DNA of 64,000 nt from an uncultured Methanosarcinales archaeon (GCA_964455675.1 CAYVYK010000002.1:7791-71790); one strand, 5' to 3'; positions 23,819 through 56,866 are shown, counted from the first letter of the stretch. Numbers and translations are program-made. The notes: a model not told the origin generated them from the letters alone.

Positions 23819-24817
23819 ATGATTGCGAAAAGCATTCAGATCCTGGAGTCTTTGCAAACACCCTCGGGCCTCTGTTCAGCGTCGAAACAGAGCGTGAACA
23901 CAGGCTACAATAGGGCTTGGATTCGTGATAATATTTATGAGTCTCTGGGTCTTGAAGCAGCGAAGCGACACTGGGCACTTAAGCGTATTTACCGGGCGAT
24001 TTTTGACGTGCTCCTCAAGCATGAAGGCAAGATCGATGCCGCAATTCAATCAAAGCCCCAGCATCACTATGAGTATATTCACCCTCGGTACGATCCGCAT
24101 ACGTTAAGCGAAATCTGGGAGGAGTGGGGAAATCGACAGAATGACGCTATCGGCGCATTTCTGTATAAGGTTGGCGATCTAGAATCAAAAGGTGTGAAGG
24201 TTATCAGGGATGATGATGATCGCCGAATTCTGCAGAAGCTTGTATGGTATCTTGATGCCATTGAGTATTGGCACGATGAGGATAATGGTGTCTGGGAGGA
24301 GAATCTCGAAATCCATGCATCATCTGTTGGTGCCTGCGTCGCAGGACTCCGTGCTGTTCGGAACCTCGTTGACGTTCATCCAGATCTTTTAAGGAAAGGC
24401 GAGGAATCACTAAATGACCTGTTGCCATACGAATCGACTACAAAGGACGCAGACCTTGCACTCCTTAGCCTAGTCTATCCGTTCAATGTTGTTTCCGACT
24501 CGCAGCGCGACGCCATTTTAAAAAATGTGGAAGAGAAGCTCGTCCGTCAGCGAGGCACTATCCGCTATGTTGGTGATAAGTACTATAACCGCGATGGAGA
24601 AGCAGAATGGGTAATGGGATTTCCATGGCTTGCAGTGATCTACAAGTCCTTGAACCGCCCTGACAAATATGCTCACTATATGAGAAAGACAATCGAATGC
24701 GCTAATGCAGAAGGAGAACTGCCCGAATTGTATTATGCGAACTCCACAGAGTGCAACGAAAATACTCCTCTTGGCTGGACGCAAGCACTCTTTCTCGTCG
24801 CTGCGATGGACGAATGA
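23819..24817 (+). CDS. Glycoside hydrolase family 15-like (glucoamylase-related) protein, short form
   Basis: YNRAWIRDN and NGVWEEN (GH15 general-acid Glu region) motifs. Confidence 0.6.
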   Translation: MIAKSIQILESLQTPSGLCSASKQSVNTGYNRAWIRDNIYESLGLEAAKRHWALKRIYRAIFDVLLKHEGKIDAAIQSKPQHHYEYIHPRYDPHTLSEIWEEWGNRQNDAIGAFLYKVGDLESKGVKVIRDDDDRRILQKLVWYLDAIEYWHDEDNGVWEENLEIHASSVGACVAGLRAVRNLVDVHPDLLRKGEESLNDLLPYESTTKDADLALLSLVYPFNVVSDSQRDAILKNVEEKLVRQRGTIRYVGDKYYNRDGEAEWVMGFPWLAVIYKSLNRPDKYAHYMRKTIECANAEGELPELYYANSTECNENTPLGWTQALFLVAAMDE

Positions 24818-32069: not shown

Positions 32070-33077
32070 CTACCGTGAAAGTCTGGCGATGAGCTCGTCC
32101 GCATCGGTGTAGATTCGCGTGCCAACCGGAAGTGCTCTCCAGTTGCGAACCTGCTCACCGGTCATGTGACCTTTGGGAGTGATGTAGAGAGTGTTTGCGT
32201 CGTCGTATTTCGCGCCCACCAACTGATACGCAGTCTGACCTCTGCCTAGGACGTATTCATGATGAGCAGGTTCATCTCCTGAAGCCAGAAAATTGTACTT
32301 GATGTTCGACCCGGCTTTGAGCGTAATTGTTCGTCCGTCCGCAAGTTTGAGAGTTCCATTTTTTTGAGGGACTGCCGTTTCAGGGACAATCCTTCCAGCT
32401 GCAACATCAGGGTCTTCGTCAGCCCAGTGGACTCCTAGCTTCTGCATGTCAACCGAGTTGGCACATTTTTTCCCTCGTTGCCTGAGTATTGCAGTTCCAT
32501 TTTTTAATTTTACCCGTTGTTCGTACACGCGTACTTGGCTGTGTTTAAGCACATGATCGTCATCCACTTGGTATCTTGTTTTGAGCTCTCCGATGAGCCA
32601 TGCTCCGCTAGCGTATTGTTCAGGCGTCAATTCCTTTGCATACGTCCCTTCAAATTCTATTCCAAGAGATCTACTATTCAGATATTCCTGCCCGTTCCAA
32701 ACGCTTGGTCCTGCGTGCTCTGCTCGTTCACGTTCTGGTACGATGGAGTAGATGGTTCCGTCTTTTCTGACAAGGTATTGAGCAGAATGATTATTTCGTA
32801 GCGTTTCAAGCGCGCCCGAGAAACCGCCTTCAGTAGTATGAATGATGATGTATTCTGTCGTCTTTCGTACCTTGCCGGGATTCTCCGCAACTTGGTGCGA
32901 TCGAACGATGTCAGTAAGCGGTGCGATAGCGTTGAGTGGCTGTGCTCGAAGTGGGGATGCGCTCCGCATGCTGTGTGATACAACATAGGTGACTCCCGCA
33001 GTCCCAAGAACCGCTGCAAGTATCCCGACTCCAATTTTAGATTTCCATAGACTGTTATGGAGAGGTTCTGACATCAC
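32070..33077 (-). CDS. N-acetylmuramoyl-L-alanine amidase (Amidase_2/PGRP domain), membrane-anchored, with C-terminal extra domain
   Basis: N-terminal TM anchor; IIIHTTEG ... AEHAGPSVWNGQEYLNSRSLGIEFEG matches the zinc-amidase PGRP/T7-lysozyme core; extra ~150-aa C-terminal region. Confidence 0.7.
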   Translation of the reverse strand: MMSEPLHNSLWKSKIGVGILAAVLGTAGVTYVVSHSMRSASPLRAQPLNAIAPLTDIVRSHQVAENPGKVRKTTEYIIIHTTEGGFSGALETLRNNHSAQYLVRKDGTIYSIVPERERAEHAGPSVWNGQEYLNSRSLGIEFEGTYAKELTPEQYASGAWLIGELKTRYQVDDDHVLKHSQVRVYEQRVKLKNGTAILRQRGKKCANSVDMQKLGVHWADEDPDVAAGRIVPETAVPQKNGTLKLADGRTITLKAGSNIKYNFLASGDEPAHHEYVLGRGQTAYQLVGAKYDDANTLYITPKGHMTGEQVRNWRALPVGTRIYTDADELIARLSR

Positions 33078-33264: not shown

Positions 33265-34536
33265 ATGGCGGAAGAGGTAGGGAAGGCAGATCAGTCATCA
33301 GTACAGAAGAAACCTGAAGATAAAAAAAACCCAGATGACGAGCTGGATCTTCTGTCTGCCCCAAGAAAACAGCTTCTCCTTCTTATTACAAAGAGCCTCG
33401 AAGCAGGAAAGAACGAGAAAGCCATCCAAAGTGATCTCATAAAGGCTGGCTGGTCCAAGACCATGGTCAAGGAACTGATGGACGAGGCACAGAATAGTGG
33501 TCAAGTCGCAAAAGCTGGTTACTTTAAACGTAAGGAGGGCGAAGCGCCCGTGCCTATTCTCAAGGATGCTCCAATCATTCGTTTCGAGGAGGTATCAAAG
33601 GCATTTGATGAGAATATTGTGCTGAACAAGATTAACCTTGAAATTAAGGCTGGAGAAATTTTTGGGATCATCGGTCTATCTGGGAGTGGCAAGAGCACGA
33701 TGCTCAACCTCATCATCGGATTTTATTATGCTGACGAGGGCAAAGTAATCTATCGCACACCGGGCAGCCCCGAGTATAAGAGTGTAGTGACTCACCCGGA
33801 TGAAGTGAAGAACCTCATCGGATTCTCGCCCCAGGATGCATCATTCTATTCAAACCTAACTGCGGAAGAGAATTTATTCTATTTTGGGAGTCTGTACGGC
33901 CTTTCATCACAGACACTGAGACAGAACGTGTATGCGCTACTCGATCTTGTCGAGCTCACGAGTTCGAGAAAGACACTCGCGAAGCATCTAAGTGGGGGAA
34001 TGCAACGTAGACTGAGTATCGCGTGCGCTCTCATACATGAGCCAAAGATATTGGTGCTCGACGAGCCGACCGCAGATCTTGACCCAGTTATCCGGCAGGA
34101 TATCTGGGAGGTTATTGAGAAAATCCACGAGAAGGGGACGACGGTTATTCTCACGTCGCATCTATTGTCTGAGCTTGAGACGTTGTGCGACCGCGTAGCA
34201 ATCATCCACAATGGAGGAATCTTAAGGCTCGGAACTCCCCTTGAGATCAAGAACCTCTACACTCACGCACAGGAAATCGTGATCGAAACCATGATGGGAG
34301 AGTACACGCCGATTATGGATCAGATCAAGAAAATGAGGCTACCAGTGAAGAAAATGGTTGTTGAGCATAATCGCCTGGTTATGATGAGTGATAGCGCCGA
34401 AGAAGTGCTGCATAAAGTGCTCAACATCCTCGAGAAACGCAGCGAGAGTGTTATTGATATCACCCTCAACAAACCCAGTTTGTCCGAAGTATTCAGCAAC
34501 CTTGTGAAGCACAAGAAGGACGAACCCGAGACTTGA
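33265..34536 (+). CDS. ABC transporter ATP-binding protein with ~100-aa charged N-terminal extension
   Basis: Walker A GLSGSGKST, signature LSGGMQRRLSIA, Walker B ILVLDEPTADLD. Confidence 0.85.
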   Translation: MAEEVGKADQSSVQKKPEDKKNPDDELDLLSAPRKQLLLLITKSLEAGKNEKAIQSDLIKAGWSKTMVKELMDEAQNSGQVAKAGYFKRKEGEAPVPILKDAPIIRFEEVSKAFDENIVLNKINLEIKAGEIFGIIGLSGSGKSTMLNLIIGFYYADEGKVIYRTPGSPEYKSVVTHPDEVKNLIGFSPQDASFYSNLTAEENLFYFGSLYGLSSQTLRQNVYALLDLVELTSSRKTLAKHLSGGMQRRLSIACALIHEPKILVLDEPTADLDPVIRQDIWEVIEKIHEKGTTVILTSHLLSELETLCDRVAIIHNGGILRLGTPLEIKNLYTHAQEIVIETMMGEYTPIMDQIKKMRLPVKKMVVEHNRLVMMSDSAEEVLHKVLNILEKRSESVIDITLNKPSLSEVFSNLVKHKKDEPET

Positions 34537-34540
34537 AATC

Positions 34541-36310
34541 ATGAACCGTATTATCAGCATTATAAAGAAGAACTTGAAGCTTCTCGTCAGGGCGAAGAGC
34601 TCAGCGCTGATTGTAGTACTTGGGCCGCTGCTCCTGATTTTCCTTGTGGGGCTCGCATTTGATAACACACAAGCTTACCAGGTATCGATTGGAACGTATT
34701 CTGAAGGGTACAACGAGCTTTCCACATCGTTCATCGAGAACTTGAAGGAGAGCCAGTTCAGGGTTGAAGCTTTCCCGACGGAAGAATTGTGCATTGACGC
34801 GATAAAACAGGGAAAAGTACACACGTGCATGGTTTTCCCTCCAGGCCTACAGATCGGCAAAGAAGGCAGCAACCAGATAACGTTTCATATAGATTATTCC
34901 CGCATCAACCTGGTATGGTCAATCCTTGATACGGTATCAGGCCATGTGACTGAGAGATCATCACAAATATCGCTCAACCTTACTAATACGGTTCTAAATG
35001 CGCTCCTCCAGGTGAGAGATCGCGCGATCAAGACTAAGCCAATTCTTGTTGACTCAACAACGAAGAATTCCGATGTGCAGAAGAAAGTAAGCGATGTGAA
35101 GAAGGATCTTATTGCGCTTGATCTAAGCATGAATCCCGCAGAGTTCAAGCTCACGGAGATTCAGACTTGGGCCACCTCGTTTCAGCAGCAGGTCCAGACA
35201 TTGATTACGGGATCAGACAAGTACTTCGCAAACATCACGTCAAGGACAAATGATGTTATAGATTCAGTCGAAGACGCAAACCTGTCCACTTCCACGGAGA
35301 ATGCGATTATTGGCGATCTCGAGGAAATCTTGAACCTAACAAAGAAGGTAGACACTCTCGTAAGCGGTCAGACGTCGCTCTCTACGACAAAAATAACAGA
35401 GCTCAACACCCTGCTCGACCAGATCGAAGGAAAAGTGACGGAGACTAAGACGAAGATCGATGGCGTTGTTCAGTTCCGTGAGGGTGCAAACGCGAAGCTC
35501 TCCGAAGTGGATCAGTTGCTCACGAATAGCCTGAACAACATCGTTGTCATTCAGAAGAACATGAACTTTATTGAGAGCACCGTAGATTCTATTGAGTTTA
35601 AGGAAGCATCATCGATTGTTGCACCAATCACGACACAGATTAAACCAGTCATTACGGAAAAGACACACTTAAATTATCTTTTTCCAAGCCTTATCGTTCT
35701 TGTTATTATGTTTATCTGTATCCTACTTTCCGCGATTCTCGTCGAGATGGAAAAGAACAGCAAGGCGAATTTCAGAAGCTTCCTGACGCCAACACCAGAT
35801 ATAATTTTTGTCGTTGCGACGTATCTCACAACCATGATTCTCCTGGTCATTCAGCTGGCTATTATTCTTGGTACGACAGCGATCTTTTTCAAGGCGAGAG
35901 TGTTTGGCAATCTCTGGATTTCCGCCCTCGTCCTCCTGCTCATCGGAACGTTTTTCTCGCTCTTTGGCATGTTGATTGGATATGTTCTAAAGTCTGAGGA
36001 GACCGCAACCCTCGCAGCAATTTCGATAGGCACGATTTTCCTCTTGTTGTCAGGACTTGTTCTCCCGATGGAGAGCATGCCTCAATATATCCGCGATGTT
36101 GCTGAGTATAATCCCTATGTCATTGGGGAAGGTGTACTTAGGAAAGCTATGTTATTCAGCGCAAATATTGGGGATATGGACATCGCGATATATACTCTGC
36201 TTGGGTACTCTGCTGCAGTGTTCTATATCATCTATCTCCTACAGAAACTAAGCAAAAAGCGTTTGCTGAGCGGTATTTTCAAACTACCGCGTATGAGAAG
36301 GGCAAAATAG
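34541..36310 (+). CDS. ABC-2/YhgE-Pip-like permease with ~330-aa coiled-coil-rich extracytoplasmic domain
   Basis: N-terminal TM, long hydrophilic helical region, 5 C-terminal TM helices. Confidence 0.7.
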   Translation: MNRIISIIKKNLKLLVRAKSSALIVVLGPLLLIFLVGLAFDNTQAYQVSIGTYSEGYNELSTSFIENLKESQFRVEAFPTEELCIDAIKQGKVHTCMVFPPGLQIGKEGSNQITFHIDYSRINLVWSILDTVSGHVTERSSQISLNLTNTVLNALLQVRDRAIKTKPILVDSTTKNSDVQKKVSDVKKDLIALDLSMNPAEFKLTEIQTWATSFQQQVQTLITGSDKYFANITSRTNDVIDSVEDANLSTSTENAIIGDLEEILNLTKKVDTLVSGQTSLSTTKITELNTLLDQIEGKVTETKTKIDGVVQFREGANAKLSEVDQLLTNSLNNIVVIQKNMNFIESTVDSIEFKEASSIVAPITTQIKPVITEKTHLNYLFPSLIVLVIMFICILLSAILVEMEKNSKANFRSFLTPTPDIIFVVATYLTTMILLVIQLAIILGTTAIFFKARVFGNLWISALVLLLIGTFFSLFGMLIGYVLKSEETATLAAISIGTIFLLLSGLVLPMESMPQYIRDVAEYNPYVIGEGVLRKAMLFSANIGDMDIAIYTLLGYSAAVFYIIYLLQKLSKKRLLSGIFKLPRMRRAK

Positions 36311-42472: not shown

Positions 42473-43690
42473 CTAGATCAGGTCCTGGAACGATGGGGGT
42501 CGGTTCACGTCCTGGACATTGATGGTGACATCTGCTGTTGATGATGTCTTGCCATCGGACGCAGTTATGGTCACTACATGTGTTCCCTGGTCGCTGAATC
42601 CGGTTTGCTTCGTGCTTGTCGTCATCCATCCGGAGTACGTAACAGTGACGGGATCGCCGTCAGCGTCTTGCACAACAGGTGTGAGTACAACAAGGTCGTT
42701 CTCGCGCACATTGATCGGACTTTGAATCTGGATCGTAGGTGCGGAGTTCTGCTGTTCAACCGTGAGGTTAAACCGGACGCTGGTCTCAAGGAATCCGTCA
42801 CTTGCGGTAACGGTAATCATTTTGACTCCAACATCCTCCTCTTCAGGTCTCCATGACCCCGATTCGTCAAGTGGTTCGCTAAACTTGTAGGATATGACAT
42901 CCCCATCAGGATCGCTTCCTTGCGGTTTCACGGTAACTTTCTGTCCTGCTTTGATGGTCACTGCGTCAATCGGACTTATGACTGGTGCGCGGTTGACGTT
43001 CAATATTTTAAGTGTGACTGTTCTCTGCGTCGCACTCTTGCCATCGTCTGCAGTGATCGTTACCTGGTAGGTTCCAGCGTCATCATATGTCGTCAGTTTG
43101 GAGTTGCCGGTCATCCATCCACTATAGCTGATCTGTACCTGATCTCCATCATTATCAGTGACTGACGGATTGAGTTCGATCTTATCACCCTCGCGGAATG
43201 TAAGTTCCCCAAGGTCTTTTATGATCGGTGGCGCATTTCGCGGCTCAACGATAATGAGTACGTCCTGGCTGACGATGCTCTTTCCATCCGATGCGGATAT
43301 CTTGATCTTGTACTGGCCGGCATCGCCGATCTTTGTCTGCCATGTTCCATCCGCTGCGAGCGGCGAACTGAATGTGTATGTCACGGGATCCCCGTCAGGG
43401 TCGGTGACCCGTAGATTCGGGAAACTCACAACGTCTCCCTCGCGTACCTTAAGTATAGGTACCTCATTGACATTGACGCCTTCACTTGGTTCAGACGTTT
43501 CTGTTGGTGGTGGCGTTATCGTCACCAGGGGTGTCTCTTCTGGAGTCTCGATGCCTGGCGGCGTACCTATGCCGTTCGGCAGCAAATCCATCCCGCTGAG
43601 ATTCTCCTCAACGACTGGTGGCGTATATGTACAGCCTACCAAGATCAACAAGAAGAATGCACTTATCCACTGTAAATGTGTTAATCTCAT
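42473..43690 (-). CDS. Secreted lipoprotein-like protein with four cadherin/Ig-like repeats
   Basis: Signal plus LVGCTY lipobox-like; four ~95-aa repeats (VTITASDGK...NVNRAP/PP, D-rich). Confidence 0.6.
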   Translation of the reverse strand: MRLTHLQWISAFFLLILVGCTYTPPVVEENLSGMDLLPNGIGTPPGIETPEETPLVTITPPPTETSEPSEGVNVNEVPILKVREGDVVSFPNLRVTDPDGDPVTYTFSSPLAADGTWQTKIGDAGQYKIKISASDGKSIVSQDVLIIVEPRNAPPIIKDLGELTFREGDKIELNPSVTDNDGDQVQISYSGWMTGNSKLTTYDDAGTYQVTITADDGKSATQRTVTLKILNVNRAPVISPIDAVTIKAGQKVTVKPQGSDPDGDVISYKFSEPLDESGSWRPEEEDVGVKMITVTASDGFLETSVRFNLTVEQQNSAPTIQIQSPINVRENDLVVLTPVVQDADGDPVTVTYSGWMTTSTKQTGFSDQGTHVVTITASDGKTSSTADVTINVQDVNRPPSFQDLI

Positions 43691-43844: not shown

Positions 43845-44453
43845 CTACTGTTGAAAATACCGTCGTGCTGCCCATGCACCAAGAAGTATGAGTGCAGCAT
43901 ACCATACTCCTGCACCGATAATGCGAATGAGTGCGTCTTCAAAAAACTGCATGGGATACATCCGGATGATGAGGGAGTTGACGTCAAAGATCCATGTCCC
44001 TGATTTGAAGAACAATTCATGGAATCCATAAAAAAGTCCCGTAAAGAGTGATCCTGCGATGATGACGAGGATGAGTGACAAAGCAAGATGCACTCCCGAA
44101 CCGTAGAGTAATACCGTGACCGCTTCACGAAAGCCGTGCTTTTTCCATTCATACCATACCACGATACTGCAGAGGAGAAGCGCGATCATGGCGGATATCT
44201 CGATACTAAGGATGATCACTCGCACATCACGCATATGCGCCCGTTCTTCATCTGTAAAGGGGACACCATCGATTGTTGATGAGAAACCGGTGAGATAGCG
44301 CGCAACAGATGCGTGATACTCTGTTGGTTCTGGTATCCCAAGGTGTATTCGTTCGTTTTCGTAGAAGCCACTATCAAGAAGTACAGTCATGAGAGCCAGA
44401 CCGCAGACAAGGATTGGAACGGATACCGCGCCTAGAATAATCGTTGCTCGCAT
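43845..44453 (-). CDS. Integral membrane protein (DUF1461-like)
   Basis: 202 aa, 4-5 TM helices. Confidence 0.45.
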   Translation of the reverse strand: MRATIILGAVSVPILVCGLALMTVLLDSGFYENERIHLGIPEPTEYHASVARYLTGFSSTIDGVPFTDEERAHMRDVRVIILSIEISAMIALLLCSIVVWYEWKKHGFREAVTVLLYGSGVHLALSLILVIIAGSLFTGLFYGFHELFFKSGTWIFDVNSLIIRMYPMQFFEDALIRIIGAGVWYAALILLGAWAARRYFQQ

Positions 44454-46363: not shown

Positions 46364-47224
46364 CTAGCCAGTATCAGAATCTTGTTTTTCCGATAGCTGG
46401 TTTATAAAGGAAAGTACCTGCAACCTGAGGAGCACAAACATCGGCATGAAGAGTATGATGAATGCTGGTGGCATGAGCGCTGCATGGATCATCCCAAGTA
46501 GCATGACCACAAATATGCCGCATGCTGCAATCAAACAGACAAGGAAATAGTTCGTGAATACCTTTAGGGTTCTGAGGACTCCGGTATGGAACACAAGCAT
46601 TGTCGCTTTTGTAATCCGATGCTTGAGTAGGTACGCGTGATGGAGCGGAACAAAGTAGAGAATGCAGAGCATAAGGAAAAAGAAGGTGAAGCTCCAGATC
46701 TCCTTAAAGAATGGTACGTAGAGGACACTCGTGGCATACCCGAACAGTAATCCAACGAGTAGCACAAACCACCCGACATTGACTGCCATGACGCGTCCAA
46801 GGTATGTGATAATCGAGGCTTTTTCCGGATGGCCTCCAAGGAGGTACCATCCAAGTCCTCCAAATATGGACCAGCACACGTACGCGAAGATGAGTAGTAC
46901 AATGAAGAGCAGCGTCGCCTGGTGGAGGTATGCTTCAATCTCAATCTGTGTTGAGGCAAGTTTTGGGATGTAGGACGCACTGACCGATTCCACATTGATA
47001 TAGTTCAGAGCAGGTGCAATCATTTCGTTTGCATTCTTGAGTATTTCAAGGATTGCCGGAACCACGCGTACACCGACTAATCCAATTAGGAAGATGAGCG
47101 CGATGTCCATAAGAAATGATATGAATGCTGCAAGGGGTGCCTTGCGCACAAGGTGCACGTTCTGGACGAGCAATTCCACAACTGAATTGGTTTTATGAGT
47201 TTCCGTCTTTTGAGCCTTTGTCAA
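46364..47224 (-). CDS. Integral membrane protein, function unknown
   Basis: 286 aa, 7-8 TM. Confidence 0.45.
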   Translation of the reverse strand: MTKAQKTETHKTNSVVELLVQNVHLVRKAPLAAFISFLMDIALIFLIGLVGVRVVPAILEILKNANEMIAPALNYINVESVSASYIPKLASTQIEIEAYLHQATLLFIVLLIFAYVCWSIFGGLGWYLLGGHPEKASIITYLGRVMAVNVGWFVLLVGLLFGYATSVLYVPFFKEIWSFTFFFLMLCILYFVPLHHAYLLKHRITKATMLVFHTGVLRTLKVFTNYFLVCLIAACGIFVVMLLGMIHAALMPPAFIILFMPMFVLLRLQVLSFINQLSEKQDSDTG

Positions 47225-47384: not shown

Positions 47385-50300
47385 TTATGTCACAACCACT
47401 TGCAGTGGCCTGCCATCGCGGGTGTTGCCGTTGTTGTCTTCTGCGCGGAATACGAGGTCATACGTCGCTGCTGCCCCACCAGTCATTTCGCTGAATGCAA
47501 ACTGGTATAGTACCTCTGTGCTTCCAGAGGGTGACTCGCGCTTGATCCCGTCTCGGACGACGGATTCCTTTCCTGCTGAATTTACCGTCAGTTTGACTTT
47601 TTTGACGCCGCTTGGCGAAACGCCCTGACCGGTATCTCCAAAATCAACCACCGGGATATCAATATAATAATCTTTACCTCGGGATACTTCATATTTGTCC
47701 TCTTTGGTCTCTACGAGTTTGTATTGGTCCCCTTCCTTGTAGTACATGGTGGTAGTTCGTAGTTCGGGGGGTGTGACGTCTCTCTTGTCGATCCCTCCGG
47801 CTGTTGTCGAACCGATTGGTTCTGCGCAGATTGCCGAGAATTGGTACTCGAACTTCTGCGCAGTGCCGAGGTATTGCGCGACGCTGTTCTGGTTTGGTTC
47901 GATCGTCCCGTCTGCTGCCTGAATTCCTTCATATATCGTGAACGTTCCAGTCCACGCAACTGGCCTATTCTGATCACACTGCTGAGTTCCCTGCTCGGTC
48001 TGGGTGACTGCTCGGCCGACGAGAACGCTTGCCGTCAGTTTGCCAAAGTCGTTTATTGACGTTCTCAGTGTAATAATGGATTCTCCGCAGTAGTATGTCT
48101 TTCCATCCCCTCTGCAGCGAATCACTGATCCACTTGGTTCAAATGTCTGCACTCCAGTGTTTGGATTCTTCACAAAGTCTCCTGCGATGTATTCAAGATA
48201 TTTCTCTCCGTTCGGTCCAAGCTCTTCAGATACCTGCACTTTCATCGTCGATGAACATTGAACAGGTGTCACGATGCCAAGGTTGTTCACTCCCTCGATG
48301 ACGCATGTGCTGCTGAGCGTGCCAGGTCCTGTGGTGAAATCTGTTCGTGATATCGGAGGGAATGATCGTGTGAGAGGAATGGTTTCACGCCCGTTGAAAG
48401 CGAGGACCTCTGGATTGTTGTAATTATTGTAAATGGATAATCCGTTCTGGTTATTCACATTCACGACGAGATATTTGGTGTACGGACACTCGCTTTCGGA
48501 AACGCCCTCGCATCCTGCCTCATCTGGCATTTTCTGGCTGACCTCGACATCAAATCCAAGGGAATCTCCGATCCTGAATGGATCACCTAGGGCCTTTGGC
48601 CTTCCAATGATGCGCGCCCAATTCTCAGTGCCTGTCTGGAATCCGCAGCGATAACTTAGTGTTGCGACGTCAAATCCGCAAATGCTTGGTGGCGGCGCTC
48701 CTTCCTGTCCAATGTCGCATTCCACGCTGTCCTTGACTGTTTGGTCTTTATTGTCCTTGTACTCCCATGTGAGTCGTGCTTTGTTGTATCGATAGGGCAT
48801 GGTTGTTGTCCAAAAGATGTCCCCTATGTCCTGTTCGCTCAGAACATCTCCTGCTTTCATGTATCCGCCCTTGATGATTGTGGTTTGTGGTGTTCCGCGT
48901 TGGCAGTCGCATAGTCCGTTCTCGAATCCTTCGCTCGCCTTGCATTCTGGTGTTGCGCTGCATTCCATCTCAAGGTACCATCGTATGTCCGCTCCAGCGA
49001 CAAGTCCCGCTCCAAAGTGATACGTCCATGTTGTCATTCCTGGTACTGGCCTTGAGACTTGATTGAATGACATGAATCGCCGCTGGCATGGATAAAGGAG
49101 TCCTTGGCTTTTCACTGGAACAGGGAATCCTTCGCCCTCGACGAGTCCTTCAACGTCGAGATCCCAAACACCAGTAAACGCCCATAAGCAGATCGCGTGG
49201 ATGAGCCGTTTTTCAACAAACAGCGTTTTATAGAGTGTCGTTCCGCCATAGCGATTTGTTATTGAGTCTGACACGCTGTTTCCCGCGCTCGTGAGGGCAC
49301 CGAAGAGATTTCCCATCGTGTCGCTTCCTCCTCGCTGCAGTCCTGAGGCGTACTTCTCCGTGAAGCAATTGATCATGTCCCAGATGAGATCACAGATGTA
49401 GACGCTGAGGACTGCCCTGCAGATGCCTGCGCTTCCGTCTCCTGTCTGGATGATGCTGTTAAAGCATGTCTTAACGGCTGTGAGAATTGCCTTCCACAGC
49501 CGCAGGTAGCTCGTGATTGCAGGCAAGCATACGCACTGGATGCTGCGAAGAAGACTGCTAGTTGGATCAACAATGTATTCCTGGTCCGTTATTCCAATTT
49601 TTGCGTAAATCCGCTCCCACACGTCGTCCGTTTCCTGCCGGTTGATCATTCTGCCATCGGACGCGCACCCGATGACATCCGCGTGGAACTTCTCTTTGAG
49701 TGAAAGCTTGAGCTGGTCGCGTGTCCTTTGATCCGCGTCGTCTTTTGGCATTTCAAACATATCGGTAACGTCCTGGACTGGCCTGAATACGAGGTACGAG
49801 TTTACGGGGCTATCCCCCATGCTGCCAGTTTCATAGTCACTTACACCTGCATTCTCGACTTCTATTGCGCGAAGATCCTTTCGTTCCACGATATAGCCTC
49901 GGTGGATGTAATACAGTTTGTCCTCCGCTGCCCTGCTTCCTCCGATCGATTCTGCGAAGTCTTCAGCGCTGATGATGCGGTAGTAAATGTTTCTGTCGTC
50001 ATTATACGAAAAGACATGCCCTCCAGTGCACGGATATGTTTTTCCCCGGATTTCTCGGGGTTCTCCTTCCGCTTCCCGCATGGCTGACTCTTTTCCAGCT
50101 TCGTCAGGGTAGAATATCACATTTCCAAGGAGTGTGTTCACAGCTCGTCCAGATGGAGAGTACGGGTCCGATACAAGCGCTCTGCTTTCTGATCCATATC
50201 GGAAGTAGGTGTTGACGAGTTGTGGTACCGCCTTTCCATCAGCATCACAGAATCCAGCGACGGCGTTCCAGAGTTTGTTGCAGTCTCCCTCGTTTGAACG

Positions 50301-53300
50301 GTCGTTCGCCTGTTCTGCGGCGAGGCATTTTGATTCTTTCAGCTCGTTCATGATGACGCATGCCGAATTCCAGGTGTTCATGTATTCTGTGCTGCAGCAT
50401 TTTTCGTTTCTTTCGTGAAGTTTACTGCAGTCAACATCCGTTTCTGCGTTTGCCTCACCAGCAACAGTTCCTGCAACAGTCCCGCTTCCTCCGGCTGCGT
50501 TTCCTTTGCCGTTTTGTTGATAGTAATTGTACTGCTTGATGATCTCGTTATAATCATCCGTCGGTACTTCCGCGCAGTCGCTTCCAGCTTTGATAATTGC
50601 TCCATTCCCGCCTCCAAGGTTGACATCAGTGTTCCTTTTATTGCGCTGGTTGTCCTTGATGTATTTCTGGAATGTTGGCGCGCTCGGACAGAACATGCGA
50701 TCGCAAACCCAGTGAGAGAGCTTTTCGAATTTCTGCCTGGTCTCGATTGCCCCTTGGCATGCAAGGCAAGCTTCATTCTTCTGTTTTGATCCTTCATTAT
50801 CTGCTGGATAGACAACATTACATTGTCCCGTCGCTGCGACATCCTTCTTGAACACTCCGCCAGTAAACATTTGGAGGATGTTGCTGTATTCGCAGTTCCA
50901 GCTCTCTTGGAAAGCTAAGACAAACTGGAATAGCCATCCAAAGAGGCACGCGTAAAGCGTGTATTTTTGCACGGTCGCGAGTGGCTTGAGTACTTTGTCT
51001 ATTAGCTCAACCGCTTTTTCTAGGACCTGCACCGATGTCTTCAGGAAGTTGTTTGGGATTACGCTTGGGGGAATGCGTTTGTCTATCGGTATTTCGAGCA
51101 GCCAGCACTGTCTTTGGATGATATTGTTCACTCGGAATCCTTCTTCAGTCATGTCAAGGTATGCTGCCTGGAAGTTCTCGTCGATTTTTTCTTCGATCGT
51201 GAGTTCCATGACGAGTGGTACCCTGATGCATCCTGTTCCCTGGAGGATGCATCGGTCCTCATGGAGCATGCTGATGTTTCTTTCCTTTTCGTAGATTGTC
51301 CAATTCTTTCCTTCACGCGGCTGCTCATTGCCCTGGTAGGACGGATCATATGCGCGGATGTTGACATTGATATACCCGGCCGTGTAGTCCTTGTTCCACA
51401 TTGATCGCACGGTGACTTTATCCGTGTCATAATGGTTTTTCCAGTTTTGCGATAGCGTTTGGAACGTGATCCTTGGTTGCCTTGTGATTTTGTATCGCGG
51501 TGTTGATGTCTGTCCGTAGCTCGTCTCGTTCTGTATGCTTGCCGTCGATGAGAGGTTAACCGCAAATCCTATTTTTGCAAGGCCTTCGAGGATGAGCCTT
51601 GGATTGAGCATGGAGGGGGTGGGTTGTGATATGACAACGTTGAACCAGTTGCCATACCCGCACATCGCGTAGATAATGTCTTTTCGCTCTTCAGCTTCAA
51701 GTCCAGACGTTCCTCGCGCAACAATTCGAACATGATTCATCCATGCGTCGGAGCTCTCGATAAGTCCTTGGACTGATTCTCCTTCTTCTCCCGTTTCTGA
51801 GCTGAACTTGATGTCTCTTTCGAGGGGGATGTGCATTGTGAATGAGTAGTCCTCATGGGTTACGGTAACGTTGACAGGACTTGTCTTGTTGTTGACATAC
51901 GCGTAGAGCGTTGCCTTTTTGTCGAGCTTTCCTCGGACATAGATATCGTTCACATAGCTTGGAGTCAATTCATCAAGGTTGATCTCAACGAATTTTGGCG
52001 CCTGATTTTCAAACACGACTTTCTTTTCCACGGTCACTTTGTTTCCTGCTCGATCCTCGGCCGTGATGGTAACATAGTTCTCGCCCTGGCCCAGCGACAC
52101 CGACTGTGAGAAGTCGCCGCTCAGTGTGAGTTTTTGTGCTTGTTTGAATATCGAACAGGTGAGGTTGAACGTATTCGGCGTCCGGTTGAACTGCTGGCCT
52201 CCAAGAGGTGTTGTGATGATGAGCGACTCTGATAGGACACCTTCATTGCATGAGTCATCAATTGCGCTCACCTGGTACCGATAGGTAGATCCGGAATCAA
52301 CGAATGCGCCCGTATCTCGAAAGTTCGTCGTCCTCGTTGACGTGATCCTCATTCCGTTTCTGTAGATGACGTATTCTCGCAGGTCTTTCTCGGTGTTGCG
52401 ATCCCATCGTAATTCGATCGTGTTCGTGTATACCGTTCCGTTCGTCAGTCCCTTGACCCGTGCTGGTGCTTCTCTGTCTGCTTTGTTGATAACGTCGAAT
52501 GTTATCGTCGCGAGTTCATCCACACTTCCATTCACTGTTATTGCTTGTGTCTTTGCCGTGTCATTGATAGTTCCAATGACAAGCTTGGGAGGCCTGGTAT
52601 CGACGGTGACGGCGAACTCCTTGGCAAGTGTTCCGCCAAGTTGGTCGGTCGCTTCCACTTTAAGCTTATTCTCTCCTTCGTTGAGCATAATTCCGGCGAT
52701 CATGAAGCTTCCGTTCGAGTTTGATCGCACGGATCTGCGAAGTTGTCCTCCCATGAAGAATTTGACGTCGCTGTTCACTTTTGTCGTGCCGGTGACATCA
52801 ATCAATTTTTGGCTCATGAATGGTGGAAGCGTGACGTTCAGGAATGGCTGTACGGTGTCTTCTCCCGTGACAAGCGTTGATTCTGTGCTATTCGTGCATA
52901 CGTTTGCGACGCTGCATGAGCTCACGAGGTACTTGTAACTTTTCCCTTCCTGCAAGGAGAGGACGATCGCGTGCTGGAAAACATATCCTGGAGAGGTATC
53001 AGTGGTGTTTGCTTTCTCAATGCCATAGTACACTTTGGATGTTGCAGGAACATCGGTTGTCCAGCCGATTGTTGCGGTTGTCTTCGTCACACTTTGTATT
53101 TTGACATTTGTTACTTGTGGAGGGTTGAGATTTGGCTGCTGGGCCGTCGTGAAATGGTAGTTTGATCCGAGATTGTCAAGCGTAACGGACTCTCCTTGTT
53201 CGTCGATTCCAACAATCCTGTAGTAGTAGAGTGTTTGGCTTTCCAATGGCGAGAGGACGACGCTGTGGGTCGTTGATAACTGTGCTGATTCACCGATGAG

Positions 53301-53546
53301 GCTGAGGCTTCCCATCGATCCATACTCCACGCGTCCTGTTGACGGAACATCGCTCGTCCACGAGATTGTGGCTTGATTAAATCCAACGCTTGTGTGCGGC
53401 GGTGTCGAAGGCGTGATCGTCAACGCGTACGTCATATGGATAGGTATGAAGATGATGAGTTGTATCATAAATATCGCCACCACTCGAAGGACTGCTTGCG
53501 ATGGCTTCAGAGAACTCCATGGTTGCTCGTCTGCCATGTTGCTCAC
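47385..53546 (-). CDS. Giant (2053 aa) N-terminally anchored surface protein: FN3-like and Ig-like domains followed by ~1300-aa cysteine-rich region of unknown fold
   Basis: Uninterrupted 6.2-kb ORF; N-terminal hydrophobic anchor; two purple-acid-phosphatase-N-like FN3 domains, a further FN3 and Ig-like segments; >40 N-x-S/T sequons; ~70 Cys in the C-terminal two-thirds; GTG start overlapping the upstream stop. Confidence 0.8.
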   Translation of the reverse strand: MSNMADEQPWSSLKPSQAVLRVVAIFMIQLIIFIPIHMTYALTITPSTPPHTSVGFNQATISWTSDVPSTGRVEYGSMGSLSLIGESAQLSTTHSVVLSPLESQTLYYYRIVGIDEQGESVTLDNLGSNYHFTTAQQPNLNPPQVTNVKIQSVTKTTATIGWTTDVPATSKVYYGIEKANTTDTSPGYVFQHAIVLSLQEGKSYKYLVSSCSVANVCTNSTESTLVTGEDTVQPFLNVTLPPFMSQKLIDVTGTTKVNSDVKFFMGGQLRRSVRSNSNGSFMIAGIMLNEGENKLKVEATDQLGGTLAKEFAVTVDTRPPKLVIGTINDTAKTQAITVNGSVDELATITFDVINKADREAPARVKGLTNGTVYTNTIELRWDRNTEKDLREYVIYRNGMRITSTRTTNFRDTGAFVDSGSTYRYQVSAIDDSCNEGVLSESLIITTPLGGQQFNRTPNTFNLTCSIFKQAQKLTLSGDFSQSVSLGQGENYVTITAEDRAGNKVTVEKKVVFENQAPKFVEINLDELTPSYVNDIYVRGKLDKKATLYAYVNNKTSPVNVTVTHEDYSFTMHIPLERDIKFSSETGEEGESVQGLIESSDAWMNHVRIVARGTSGLEAEERKDIIYAMCGYGNWFNVVISQPTPSMLNPRLILEGLAKIGFAVNLSSTASIQNETSYGQTSTPRYKITRQPRITFQTLSQNWKNHYDTDKVTVRSMWNKDYTAGYINVNIRAYDPSYQGNEQPREGKNWTIYEKERNISMLHEDRCILQGTGCIRVPLVMELTIEEKIDENFQAAYLDMTEEGFRVNNIIQRQCWLLEIPIDKRIPPSVIPNNFLKTSVQVLEKAVELIDKVLKPLATVQKYTLYACLFGWLFQFVLAFQESWNCEYSNILQMFTGGVFKKDVAATGQCNVVYPADNEGSKQKNEACLACQGAIETRQKFEKLSHWVCDRMFCPSAPTFQKYIKDNQRNKRNTDVNLGGGNGAIIKAGSDCAEVPTDDYNEIIKQYNYYQQNGKGNAAGGSGTVAGTVAGEANAETDVDCSKLHERNEKCCSTEYMNTWNSACVIMNELKESKCLAAEQANDRSNEGDCNKLWNAVAGFCDADGKAVPQLVNTYFRYGSESRALVSDPYSPSGRAVNTLLGNVIFYPDEAGKESAMREAEGEPREIRGKTYPCTGGHVFSYNDDRNIYYRIISAEDFAESIGGSRAAEDKLYYIHRGYIVERKDLRAIEVENAGVSDYETGSMGDSPVNSYLVFRPVQDVTDMFEMPKDDADQRTRDQLKLSLKEKFHADVIGCASDGRMINRQETDDVWERIYAKIGITDQEYIVDPTSSLLRSIQCVCLPAITSYLRLWKAILTAVKTCFNSIIQTGDGSAGICRAVLSVYICDLIWDMINCFTEKYASGLQRGGSDTMGNLFGALTSAGNSVSDSITNRYGGTTLYKTLFVEKRLIHAICLWAFTGVWDLDVEGLVEGEGFPVPVKSQGLLYPCQRRFMSFNQVSRPVPGMTTWTYHFGAGLVAGADIRWYLEMECSATPECKASEGFENGLCDCQRGTPQTTIIKGGYMKAGDVLSEQDIGDIFWTTTMPYRYNKARLTWEYKDNKDQTVKDSVECDIGQEGAPPPSICGFDVATLSYRCGFQTGTENWARIIGRPKALGDPFRIGDSLGFDVEVSQKMPDEAGCEGVSESECPYTKYLVVNVNNQNGLSIYNNYNNPEVLAFNGRETIPLTRSFPPISRTDFTTGPGTLSSTCVIEGVNNLGIVTPVQCSSTMKVQVSEELGPNGEKYLEYIAGDFVKNPNTGVQTFEPSGSVIRCRGDGKTYYCGESIITLRTSINDFGKLTASVLVGRAVTQTEQGTQQCDQNRPVAWTGTFTIYEGIQAADGTIEPNQNSVAQYLGTAQKFEYQFSAICAEPIGSTTAGGIDKRDVTPPELRTTTMYYKEGDQYKLVETKEDKYEVSRGKDYYIDIPVVDFGDTGQGVSPSGVKKVKLTVNSAGKESVVRDGIKRESPSGSTEVLYQFAFSEMTGGAAATYDLVFRAEDNNGNTRDGRPLQVVVT

Positions 53547-55546
53547 TCTAGCCTCGGGACGAGCTCGTCCGCGTATTCTCCGGTCTCAAAATAATTTGCG
53601 ATCATTGCCTGGTCTTTCTCCGTTACGGGTGTTGGCCTGAATTCGAACATGTTGAAGATGATAGTGTCTGAGGAAGCTACATCATCGTAGCTTGGACTCC
53701 AGGTCCCATCATATCCTCCAAATATGTACTCCCTCGCGTACCCGCGTTTGCTTCCCATGATCTTGACGTCATAGACTATTCCCTCGTCAAGAACGAGGTC
53801 GATTGTTGATCCTGGTGATGGGTAACTGGCATATTGTTCATAGGTTGCGTTTTTCACTGACAGCGATATGGTGACGTTTTCTCTCTCATCAAGGGGTATG
53901 GACACGGGAATGAGCGTTCCCGTCTCGCTGAAGTAGAGATTCTTCCGGACTTCGTAGTTCATCTTCTTTAATCGTTTCATGGGGATCTCTATTGTGTCCT
54001 GTTCCATGTTTAATAATTGTTCCTTCGCCGGAAGGTAGCCTTGTTTTTCACCAAGGATGTAGGGGTATGCACAGTTTGAAGGAAGGGTGGTGCGTAGCTG
54101 GTAGTGTCCATCCTCTCCTCCCGTGATCCCAAGCTCGCAGTAGTCGGAAATGCATAGGTAGCTGATGTTGACGCCGCTAATTTCTTGGCTGTACATTCCG
54201 CCAAACATGCCCATTGCCTTGATCGTAACATCATTTCCTTCCTGCATGCAGAGGTCGCGTGACTGATCTGGGACGTCGAAGAATGTCACGCCGATATCCT
54301 CACGCACGCCCCGATTCTGCTTGATTTGCACAGGCAGGAAGAATGAATAGACATACCCTTGACCGCCATACGATTCCGTGTCGGTGATGGATATTTGCAC
54401 AGGATAGACGACGTCGTATGTAAAGTGATAGAAGTTTATGCAGAGGAACTGGAGGTATTGCTCCGCTCCCCTCGCGCTTTTGGATTTTAGGTATCCGTTG
54501 TGGCTTGGATTGCCGCGGAAGTACATGCCCCATCTTGGTTCGTAGCTAAAACCGACTCGCATGCTAGGTTCGCTCGCCCCAGCATCGACGAGCATGTGGA
54601 AATAGTAGTATGCATCATCCGGTAGACTGAATGTTGGCAAATTTTTGATTTCCCCAGTTTTCTCGTCACGTGGAAGTCCTCTGAACGATTCATATGTTTC
54701 ACGCGGTGCTTCGAATGGCGTGTAGATCGTGTTCTCGACGCGCATCATAGGGATGTTGTATGCGAGGAGTTCTTGCACCTTTGCCCTAAGGCTGCTAATC
54801 TTCCACTTTTCGTGTGTTTTTTGTGTCCCGCATTCAAAAGCGAGGTTCGTGAATGGAATATCAGGATGCCCTGCCATGAGGTCGATCGTGACATTTTCCA
54901 TGAACAGGTATTCATTCTCTGCATCAACAATTTTTTTGGCGAGCGCAAGGATTTTCTTCATACGGACGGGGACATGTATAACGAATTCCTGGATGTCTGC
55001 CCTCGTTTGATTTCCGAAATTGGCTTGCGCACGAAGGAGGTATGTCGTTCGCACTTCAATATCTTCGTTCGTGAAGAGGGTGACTGTCTTCGGGCTTGAG
55101 AGTATCTGCACAGTGTAGTGCTCCTGGAATGCGGTGAAGTTGTTGACGCAGTAGGGGAGCTGTTCATTCATGTAGTTGTTGAATTGCTGTGCAATGACGT
55201 TGAGGTCGGGAAGCTGGCTTTTCCCCCGGTAGTACCACAGAGGACTTTTAAAGTACCCTTGTGGATCCAGATTTACGTACGCCTGAGGTTTTCTAAGTAT
55301 TTCTGGGGGGATCGTGATATAGCCTCCCTGGACTCCCATGAGTTGAACAGCGTTTTCCGCGACATCCTCCATACAGCTTTGCACATAAAGTTGGAGGGGA
55401 ACGATCTCTGGGGGGGTGAGAGCTTCTGGTTGTGTATGCTCGTATTGTCGTCGGTAGAAGATGAATGATAGGATGAGTATGATTGCGATAATGATTACTA
55501 GAATAAAGACTGTCAACTGTCCTTTCACGCACCTCTTTTTTCGCAT
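53543..55546 (-). CDS. N-terminally anchored 667-aa extracellular protein, function unknown, coupled to the giant protein gene
   Basis: N-terminal basic segment plus TM (MRKKRCVKGQLTVFILVIIIAIILILSFIFY); many N-glycosylation sequons; 4-nt stop/start overlap with the giant gene. Confidence 0.7.
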   Translation of the reverse strand: MRKKRCVKGQLTVFILVIIIAIILILSFIFYRRQYEHTQPEALTPPEIVPLQLYVQSCMEDVAENAVQLMGVQGGYITIPPEILRKPQAYVNLDPQGYFKSPLWYYRGKSQLPDLNVIAQQFNNYMNEQLPYCVNNFTAFQEHYTVQILSSPKTVTLFTNEDIEVRTTYLLRAQANFGNQTRADIQEFVIHVPVRMKKILALAKKIVDAENEYLFMENVTIDLMAGHPDIPFTNLAFECGTQKTHEKWKISSLRAKVQELLAYNIPMMRVENTIYTPFEAPRETYESFRGLPRDEKTGEIKNLPTFSLPDDAYYYFHMLVDAGASEPSMRVGFSYEPRWGMYFRGNPSHNGYLKSKSARGAEQYLQFLCINFYHFTYDVVYPVQISITDTESYGGQGYVYSFFLPVQIKQNRGVREDIGVTFFDVPDQSRDLCMQEGNDVTIKAMGMFGGMYSQEISGVNISYLCISDYCELGITGGEDGHYQLRTTLPSNCAYPYILGEKQGYLPAKEQLLNMEQDTIEIPMKRLKKMNYEVRKNLYFSETGTLIPVSIPLDERENVTISLSVKNATYEQYASYPSPGSTIDLVLDEGIVYDVKIMGSKRGYAREYIFGGYDGTWSPSYDDVASSDTIIFNMFEFRPTPVTEKDQAMIANYFETGEYADELVPRLE

Positions 55547-55606: not shown

Positions 55607-56866
55607 TTATTCAGACGCAGGCTTTCGCAAGCGTATTCTGCCGGGATGCAGATGGTTCCAGGCTTCTTCAAGTTCTGTAAGAATGGTGTCTGCAGTTATG
55701 CTATCTAGGTCCTTAAGTGCTTCTTTGAGATCGTGTTCCGCATGTGCAATCGTGGCGCTTGCGCTGGTCAGGGTTTCTTGGAGCTTGTCCTCGTTTGTTT
55801 TCGCTCCGTTATCCTGGATACTCTCCGTGAGCTCCCGCACCTTTTTTGCCATCGCGTTATACTCGGAAAGGTACTTGGCGAGTTTTTGGACTGTAAGAGC
55901 GTCTATGACCGATAGTGTCTTTTCCTTCCTTCGTTCCTCTATTTCGACCTCATTTGATTGAATGACTTTCTTGAGTTTTTGGAGCGCTCGTACTATTTTC
56001 AGTTCATAATCGTTCACAAGTGCCTGTACAGGGTGAGAGAGGTACGGTTTGATGATCGCTTCTTCTTCAAACGCGATATATGCTAGCTTTTTCAACGGTT
56101 TTTCGAGGAGTTGGAATTCATCAATGAATTCCTTCTCATGTTTTCTGACGGCTTCCTGTGCTTTCAGGAGTTCCTGGTGCATTTTCTCATGATTTGCATA
56201 GATTTCGCTCTCATAGAACTCCCGTAATTTCTGGTCCGCTTCATCCTTTGCGATTCGTGCATCCTCAAGCAATTTTCGGAGCTTATCATGCTCTTCCTGT
56301 TTCTTTCTCCTTAAATCGTGACGCTCGTCAAGAGTTGATATTTTTCTCATAATGTGACGATATGTGTCAAGTTTGAGGTCGGTTAGTCGTGTCTTTAGAT
56401 CGTCATATTCGTTGTCGACATCCTTGATTTTCTGGGCGACTATTTCGCTCTCATGCGCAAAGAACTCCTGCAATATTTTGTATGCTCTCACCGTGCTAAG
56501 CGAAAACCGATCAATCTCTTTTTGGAAATTCGCAAGGCTTTCTTCGATCTGGTCGAGGCTTTCGGGCACATGGAGGTCACGCTCGAGCATTCTCGCCATT
56601 TTAACGTACGTTGCTCGGTTTCCCTGCATGAAATGCTTTGCTTTGTCCGGAATGTTGGGATTTCGGAGTTCCGCTTTCTCGAGGGCATCGAGCGCTTCCA
56701 GAAGTTCTCTTCGCTTGTCAGCAATTTCCTTTGACTTTTCTGTGAGGTAGTTCTTGAGTTCTTCCTCGCCTGTCATGATTTTTTCTGCTGCCTTCGCGCG
56801 CAGTTCATCGATCGTAAGCTCCTCTGGTGGTTCCTCTGCAAAGAATTTCTTCAGGAAGTCGAGCAT
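55607..56866 (-). CDS. Cytoplasmic all-helical coiled-coil protein (419 aa), first gene of the giant-protein operon
   Basis: No TM; Glu/Lys/Leu-rich heptad-like sequence throughout. Confidence 0.6.
   Translation of the reverse strand: MLDFLKKFFAEEPPEELTIDELRAKAAEKIMTGEEELKNYLTEKSKEIADKRRELLEALDALEKAELRNPNIPDKAKHFMQGNRATYVKMARMLERDLHVPESLDQIEESLANFQKEIDRFSLSTVRAYKILQEFFAHESEIVAQKIKDVDNEYDDLKTRLTDLKLDTYRHIMRKISTLDERHDLRRKKQEEHDKLRKLLEDARIAKDEADQKLREFYESEIYANHEKMHQELLKAQEAVRKHEKEFIDEFQLLEKPLKKLAYIAFEEEAIIKPYLSHPVQALVNDYELKIVRALQKLKKVIQSNEVEIEERRKEKTLSVIDALTVQKLAKYLSEYNAMAKKVRELTESIQDNGAKTNEDKLQETLTSASATIAHAEHDLKEALKDLDSITADTILTELEEAWNHLHPGRIRLRKPASE

Follow-up and report, generated by a model that had tools for sequence, protein, structure and literature searches.

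A giant cysteine-rich protein and its gene neighbourhood

Examination of a 64,000-nucleotide stretch of DNA from an uncultured Methanosarcinales archaeon (GCA_964455675.1, CAYVYK010000002.1:7791-71790; the whole stretch is hereafter termed the window) revealed a gene for a predicted secreted protein of 2053 amino acids (aa), part of which had been described in an earlier reading of the same DNA (the original prediction) as a cysteine (Cys)-rich region with no recognisable domain. This giant gene is flanked on the same strand by a partner gene and a gene for a membrane protein, as listed below with coordinates counted from the first letter of the window. Archaeal genes elsewhere in the window include those for the exosome subunits Rrp41, Rrp42 and Rrp4, SBDS, proteasome alpha, aIF2-gamma, SRP54, HisRS and LonB.

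53543..55546, minus strand: partner gene, 667 aa, directly upstream of the giant gene, its stop codon overlapping the giant-gene start
47385..53546, minus strand: giant-protein gene, 2053 aa, an uninterrupted open reading frame (ORF) by ORF calling and translation
53424..53546, minus strand: predicted Sec-type signal peptide of the giant protein (residues 1-41), with a hydrophobic core at residues 18-36 (Kyte-Doolittle hydropathy, KD, 2.56), ending at ...TYA before LT, and with equivalents in homologues
46364..47224, minus strand: polytopic membrane protein, 286 aa, with six KD-predicted transmembrane (TM) helices, downstream of the giant gene

The start codon of the giant gene is a GTG that shares bases with the TGA of its partner (GTGA), and an alternative ATG lies three codons inward at 53537. 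The annotation deposited at NCBI for this identical protein (P0001, 2016 aa) places the start at M38 and thereby loses the signal peptide (window 53435..53546, minus strand); the longer protein, from either the GTG or the ATG at 53537, agrees with its homologues. Since these homologues number in the hundreds and share 30-50% identity over the full length, the ORF is shown to be a genuine gene. Residues 18-36 are the sole strongly hydrophobic segment of the protein, which terminates in ...RPLQVVVT; as the original prediction had noted, sequence and hydrophobicity checks detected no hydrophobic C-terminal segment or sorting tail.

A large family in DPANN archaea with a conserved cysteine-rich core

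A word-indexed search yielded just nine relatives of the giant protein. An exhaustive profile hidden Markov model (HMM) search over 1.84 billion representatives, with clusters defined at 50% identity, recovered 656 clusters at E<=1e-3, of which 390 also reach E<=1e-30; almost all measure 1.3-3.1 thousand aa and align across the entire core. A scan of species-representative genomes identified 32 loci, nearly all in metagenome-assembled genomes of Woesearchaeota, Nanoarchaeota or Nanoarchaeia, which belong to the very small, symbiotic archaea termed DPANN; several of these genomes had been labelled 'Methanosarcinales' automatically. The neighbours of the relatives' loci that we examined were archaeal (Alba, S8e, NOG1). 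On the sequences surveyed, the giant family is thus one confined to DPANN archaea. A viral or mobile-element origin was also considered and was rejected because IMG/VR contained no relative.

Conservation across the family peaks between residues ~517 and ~1670, with a variable insert (residues 1105-1272) and a variable tail, placing the start of the conserved part well before the boundary at residue 780 originally proposed. In a 41-sequence alignment, 33 Cys within residues 766-1634 are at least 93% conserved, as are C629 and the pair C1857/C1907, giving a total of ~36; among 109 members the core contains a mean of 35 Cys. This conservation, together with the even count (34 in the core and one pair in the tail), is consistent with a disulfide-stabilised extracellular domain. 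Enrichment in Cys was borne out, residues 780-2053 comprising 3.2% Cys compared with 1.0% in the 29 other ORFs of the window, and both motifs cited in the original prediction, EACLACQG and CSATPECKASEGFENGLCDC, occur in the giant protein. The figures that accompanied them were too high: instead of about 70 Cys, residues 780-2053 hold 41 (48 in the whole protein), and the supposedly frequent CxxC pairs reduce to one CxxC (C927/C930), alongside two CxC and one CC. The sole CxxC corresponds to CLACQ, and neither CxxCH haem motifs nor a classical Fe-S motif were identified in the giant protein.

A core of helical and beta-sandwich blocks

Combining Pfam matches, family conservation and structure prediction, we divided the mature protein into seven regions, all encoded on the minus strand. 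The core was modelled with AlphaFold2 (AF2) over residues 760-1700 using the 41-sequence alignment, giving a predicted local distance difference test score (pLDDT) of 69.8 and a predicted template modelling score (pTM) of 0.57; an earlier model built from nine sequences was unusably poor (pLDDT 49.5).

51780..53414, minus strand: stalk of immunoglobulin (Ig)-like/FN3 domains, residues 45-589, defined by Pfam and bearing most of the N-x-S/T sequons
51054..51779, minus strand: conserved beta-sandwich and long beta-hairpin opening the core, residues 590-831 (C629, C766, C773, C814), from AF2 and conservation
50235..51053, minus strand: helical Cys-rich block A, residues 832-1104, with 15 conserved Cys including the sole CxxC (AF2, mostly pLDDT 70-90; Cys conservation)
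49731..50234, minus strand: insert of low conservation, disordered in part and containing small beta elements, residues 1105-1272 (identity 0.11-0.15, gap-rich; pLDDT <50 at residues 1121-1169)
49137..49730, minus strand: helical Cys-rich block B, residues 1273-1470, where conservation within the family is highest (AF2, conservation)
48534..49136, minus strand: conserved beta-sandwich, residues 1471-1671, with eight conserved Cys (including C1529, C1535, C1546, C1548, C1610, C1623 and C1634; AF2 pLDDT 70-93)
47388..48533, minus strand: variable beta-rich tail, residues 1672-2053, with the Cys pair C1857/C1907 and neither anchor nor enzyme domain

In the stalk, Pfam matched Pur_ac_phosph_N (57-134), fn3 (144-214), Big_13 (261-317) and Glucodextran_B (468-511), two of these lying above and two below their gathering cut-offs. 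The AF2 model places the long beta-hairpin at residues 773-820 and well-predicted elements of the second sandwich at residues 1481-1671. Block A is predicted to comprise helices at residues 832-895 (64 residues), 918-952, 959-969, 999-1012, 1048-1062 and 1068-1079, the first of which includes a semi-hydrophobic stretch at residues 862-880. Block B is marked by the motifs LLRSxQCxCLPAITSYL... and ERKLVHAIC.WAFTGTWDLD, and its seven conserved Cys lie mainly within or beside predicted helices, a placement shared by many of the conserved Cys of the core.

Consistent with the absence of a recognisable domain reported originally, Pfam is silent beyond residue 511 and NCBIfam produced no meaningful match, its only hit to the giant protein being a sub-threshold repeat match at residues 484-503. 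Searches of PDB sequences, with the sequence or with profiles, matched nothing in residues 780-2053, and neither the partner nor the tail matched a PDB sequence. Foldseek comparison of the core model with PDB and BFVD identified no fold match, the best E-values (0.028 and 0.019) deriving from Ig-like parts only. HMM, PDB-sequence and Foldseek searches therefore do not resolve residues 780-2053 into a concatenation of known domains. Furthermore, BLAST self-comparison detected none of the internal repeats whose absence had been predicted, and the view that this is not a repeat-built adhesin also held, Pfam, NCBIfam, PDB-sequence and Foldseek PDB/BFVD searches having returned only Ig-like noise. 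As modelled, the core of ~1100 aa would consist of a beta-sandwich, two long-helix bundles and a second beta-sandwich, with ~34 near-invariant Cys and without a detectable relative of known structure.

The core appears to be kept free of glycosylation

Many N-x-S/T sequons had been claimed for residues 780-2053. Upon recounting, this region was found to hold none, all 15 lying within residues 1-779, and because of this miscount the accompanying argument from glycosylation falls. We compared sequon counts with a null derived from composition, which was calibrated on 14 cytoplasmic proteins of the window (14 observed, 14.7 expected). Against this null, 8.8 sequons were expected in residues 780-2053 (Poisson P = 1.5e-4). 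The pattern extends across 109 relatives, each representing a separate 50%-identity cluster. N-terminal of the HMM core match, over the stalk and first beta-sandwich, 931 sequons were observed and 663 expected (ratio 1.4). The core after its first 130 residues holds 97, compared with 496 expected (ratio 0.20), and the tail holds 162, compared with 447 expected (ratio 0.36). More than half of the cores (58 of 109) lack any sequon, and the partner protein family is enriched (126 observed, 78 expected).

A cytoplasmic segment would be neutral in this respect, and the five-fold deficit in the core thus argues for selection against glycosylation. Such selection would in turn imply that the core meets the N-glycosylation machinery, and hence lies outside the cell, yet must remain bare. 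These findings indicate that the core is an extracellular region kept unglycosylated. Together with the signal peptide and the even number of ~36 conserved Cys, they make an extracellular, disulfide-stabilised state the best reading of the sequence. To this extent the original proposal of a unique disulfide-stabilised extracellular fold survives; its uniqueness does not, given a family of 656 clusters.

A syntenic prepilin-like partner and a downstream membrane protein

The giant gene is always preceded by a partner of ~650 aa, identified directly upstream at ~30 loci, mostly with an overlap of 4-44 nucleotides and otherwise separated by a short gap. The window copy begins MRKKRCVKGQLTVFILVIII..., and across 25 homologues the N-terminus is near-invariant, reading M(K)KKGQ[IL]T[ILV]FIIIG... 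and, in its broader form, [KR][GA]Q[ILV][TS]x[FY] ahead of a hydrophobic helix. This is the pattern of archaeal class III (prepilin-type) signal peptides of the FlaFind type, for which the N-terminus is a candidate. The partner has eight conserved Cys, with nine in the window copy. Relatives also encode a protein of ~270 aa with six to eight TM helices at the same downstream position as the 286-aa membrane protein. The original prediction had the giant protein ending free in the extracellular space, which overlooks this strictly syntenic partner and the polytopic membrane protein, together the likely tether. An ORF in one locus (L025, 6881..14737) that appeared to fuse the partner to the giant protein proved to be an artefact of a masked run of N across the junction, and does not represent a Rosetta-stone fusion.

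The arrangement recalls bacterial PilY1/PilC pilus-tip adhesins with their minor pilins, in which, as here, a giant Sec-secreted non-pilin is encoded beside a prepilin-like protein and a joint surface complex is expected. The present system differs in being archaeal, in lacking a Pfam match to the PilY1 beta-propeller or vWA domain, in the size of the partner, which at ~650 aa is far above that of a minor pilin, and in the absence of a pilus ATPase or platform gene from the flanks of three relatives' loci (L001, L003 and L037).

Many relatives carry a second module of similar build upstream (L001 407..8068, with equivalents in L012, L013, L014, L016, L024, L027 and L021). It encodes a pilin-like protein of 740 aa that is a paralogue of the partner, two secreted proteins, one of 1054 aa with ~22 invariant Cys and one of 471 aa, and a protein with seven TM helices; none of these has a BLAST match in the window. 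A short motif, C[LI]P[AG]I..[YN]L..W[KR].I, is common to the 1054-aa family and block B of the giant protein. As the likeness covers only 43 alignment columns (hhalign E 0.0014, probability 17%), we did not accept these 1054-aa Cys-rich proteins as paralogues of the giant core. Also found in some relatives, two genes downstream of the giant gene, was a transglutaminase-core (PF01841) protein of ~265-275 aa (L001 17798..18592; L037 8636..9463), no equivalent of which adjoins the giant gene of the window. Directly upstream of the partner gene in the window (55607..56866, minus strand) lies a highly charged, helix-rich 419-aa protein rich in Lys and Glu, for which no homologue was identified in the synteny of related loci.

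Some family members, and the window, carry bacterial-wall hydrolases

Among 75 family members scanned with Pfam, seven were found to be fused to peptidoglycan hydrolases belonging to six families, namely SLT (two members), Amidase_2, Peptidase_M74, VanY, Glucosaminidase and NlpC/P60. No further enzyme class exceeded threshold in these 75 members, the other additional domains being Ig-like modules and, once, a Cys-rich domain of Dickkopf type. Mapping of three members placed the hydrolase domain in the tail, 480-840 residues past the end of the core. One member, P0151, also contains a sub-threshold GDSL/SGNH-hydrolase-like stretch (residues 2030-2133, E 1.7e-4) after its SLT domain, which might represent a peptidoglycan O-acetyl esterase partner domain.

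Pfam detected neither SLT nor any other hydrolase domain in the giant protein of the window. A separate gene ~14 kb away (32070..33077, minus strand) encodes an Amidase_2 protein (N-acetylmuramoyl-L-alanine amidase; 335 aa, E 9e-25) with an N-terminal hydrophobic segment (signal or TM), constituting a peptidoglycan hydrolase in an archaeal genome.

Related observations have been reported for DPANN archaea. Large extracellular proteins of up to 3000 aa with lytic-transglycosylase domains have been described from Woesearchaeota and Pacearchaeota, and binding to bacterial walls has been suggested for them (PMC8204110; also PMC9723730). Predatory or 'vampiristic' lifestyles are proposed for Woesearchaeota (PMC9723730), and the genomes of Nanoarchaeota stand out for their peptidoglycan hydrolases (PMC12352652). 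The available text of the three papers makes no mention of the Cys-rich core, the partner or the sequon purge. The large lytic-transglycosylase proteins (fam00969 in Castelle et al. 2021, PMC8204110; 'large lytic murein transglycosylase' in PMC9723730) are, as described there, similar to the giant family in lineage, size (to ~3000 aa) and predicted extracellular location. A tail SLT domain occurs in 2 of 75 members of the giant family, and the window protein differs from the published proteins in lacking SLT or any other hydrolase; the hydrolase domain is all that the available text of the papers covers.

The combination of a conserved scaffold with a variable C-terminal tail, bearing in some relatives differing enzymes for another cell, also resembles contact-dependent effectors of the CdiA/Rhs kind. 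Kinship with these systems in sequence or fold is lacking, as are two-partner secretion (TPS), FHA and RHS/YD repeat domains and an immunity gene, and most tails of the giant family carry no recognisable enzyme.

Other surface-associated and unexpected genes in the window

Near the giant gene lies a 405-aa protein of PKD, Big_9 and cadherin-like Ig domains (42473..43690, minus strand), which is likely a surface or adhesion protein. A 202-aa member of the Lit family (lipoprotein intramolecular transacylase, PF07314, E 3e-22; 43845..44453, minus strand), otherwise bacterial, is unexpected in DPANN. Also identified were two ABC-2-type transporter sets, each consisting of an ATPase and an ABC2_membrane_3 permease (1612..5385, minus strand; 33265..36310, plus strand), one of which adjoins a CARDB/NPCBM_assoc surface protein (1612..2859), and a GH15-like glycoside hydrolase (23819..24817).

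A candidate host-contact device and its alternatives

The interpretation we favour, one that could equally prove right or wrong, is that the giant protein and its partner form a host-contact device that docks on bacteria and breaches their walls. From the conservation and even count of the core Cys, ~17 disulfides would staple the helices into a rigid, glycan-free extracellular module. The partner, possibly with the membrane protein, would tether the giant protein to the archaeal surface, and the assembly might then dock on a bacterial peptidoglycan wall and open it locally. The hydrolase would be supplied in cis in some relatives, and here probably in trans through the amidase at 32070..33077. 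The helical core itself could provide a scaffold, a hub for oligomerisation or an element that acts on membranes.

Extracellular, Cys-crosslinked helical bundles are known at the host interface of eukaryotic parasites, where Duffy-binding-like (DBL) domains and bundles of the variant surface glycoprotein (VSG) type are usually glycosylated. The giant core resembles these in its helical bundle, its many conserved Cys and its proposed host interface; organisms and evolutionary origin are unrelated, and Foldseek returned no structural match in PDB.

Several observations weigh against a host-contact device. The Pfam Class_IIIsignal model matches the partner only below threshold (E ~1 in 2 of 10), and neither a type IV pilus ATPase nor a platform gene turned up within 10 kb at L001, L003 or L037. 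AF2 confidence is medium, with parts of block B and of the insert below 50, and the disulfides are deduced from sequence and not from Cys-Cys distances. A hydrolase is present in only 9% of the scanned members and is lacking in the window protein, which suggests that attacking walls may be a supplementary function in place of the core role of the family. Finally, this organism is without a known host.

A somewhat unlikely alternative is that the giant protein has a structural role in the surface coat or envelope of the DPANN cell itself, as an S-layer-like or S-layer-associated component in which the core serves as a lattice or oligomerisation module and the hydrolase tails are opportunistic display fusions. 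Burial in a tight lattice would purge core sequons equally well, and a family that is widespread, syntenic and single-copy-like in one lineage, with a stalk built as an Ig-like array with (glycosylated) sequons and with 91% of scanned members lacking an enzyme domain, would suit such a role. Archaeal S-layer glycoproteins, however, differ from the giant protein, which lacks their type of C-terminal anchor or sorting tail (TM, PGF-CTERM type) and has its sequons purged from the C-terminal two thirds. To our knowledge, so extreme a load of conserved Cys is also atypical of S-layer proteins. Furthermore, the fact that the only enzymes fused to members of this family are bacterial-wall hydrolases, from six families, argues for a target outside the archaeon, and the prepilin-like partner suggests a discrete appendage in preference to a lattice.

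Less probable still is that the core acts on membranes, as a fusogen or pore-former. Disulfides would keep it metastable, and freedom from glycans would let its helices insert into the host membrane after the wall has been opened, creating a cytoplasmic connection or a leak that feeds the episymbiont. The very long predicted helices (64 and 35 residues), a five-fold sequon purge specific to the core, the wall hydrolases in the tails of relatives, and the predatory or 'vampiristic' Woesearchaeota proposed in PMC9723730 could all be accommodated. Semi-hydrophobic helices at residues 862-880, 1374-1396 and 1451-1469 are conserved (family mean KD 1.2-1.25), but the first exceeds KD 1.5 in just 29% of members, as in ordinary buried helices. 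No fold likeness emerged to solved fusogens or pore-forming toxins in PDB or to viral protein models in BFVD. Compared with the fusexin/HAP2 class II fusogens, the giant core is helix-dominated, has no class II match by Foldseek in PDB and is not followed by a C-terminal TM segment. Experimental or contextual signs of membrane activity are likewise absent.

Very improbable, by comparison with a tethered extracellular device, is that residues 862-880 form a true TM helix with everything downstream in the cytoplasm, where the Cys would bind Zn or Fe-S and sequons would stop at residue 779. The confinement of all 15 sequons to the region before residue 780 fits this model, as do the zinc-ribbon-like spacing C927-x2-C930 ... 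C948-x4-C953 and a KD of 1.32 for residues 862-880, rising to 2.0 in some relatives. A cytoplasmic segment should nevertheless accumulate sequons at the neutral rate seen in the calibration set, and it is the depletion of sequons in the core, along with borderline hydrophobicity (below the usual TM threshold of KD 1.5 in 71% of members; family mean 1.25), that led us to reject a cytoplasmic metal-binding region. The peptidoglycan hydrolases, Ig-like domains and Cys pair in the tails of relatives, which act outside the cell, and the lack of CxxCH or classical Fe-S motifs also argue against it. A concatenation of known domains or a spurious ORF is barely credible: the weak Ig-like Foldseek likeness of the flanking beta-sandwiches (E 0.03 or worse) is set against the lack of any match in Pfam, NCBIfam or PDB sequences with sequence and profiles alike, and against the full-length homologues noted above. 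Cytoplasmic metal binding and known domains are thus effectively excluded.

Significance for DPANN host interaction

Giant DPANN surface proteins for host interaction are of a kind already known; what appears new here is an uncharacterised core domain, through which a large family of 656 clusters is added to the catalogue. A bolder proposal, and in our view a long shot, is that the core is a novel membrane-active or envelope-penetrating module which, with the partner and hydrolases, forms an apparatus for attaching to and tapping bacterial hosts. If true, this would represent a cross-domain episymbiosis or predation machine without a homologue among known secretion systems, fusogens and toxins.

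Whether some Woesearchaeota and Pacearchaeota live on bacteria is a question that is still open (PMC8204110, PMC9723730). These archaea are very abundant, their hosts and attachment mechanisms are unknown, and the locus offers a concrete handle on the question in the form of a lineage-wide three-gene module of prepilin-like partner, giant protein and membrane protein. With ~34 conserved Cys, no known fold and a strong signature of selection against glycosylation, the core is a clear target for structure determination and contact-site localisation, and for use as a marker in finding hosts.

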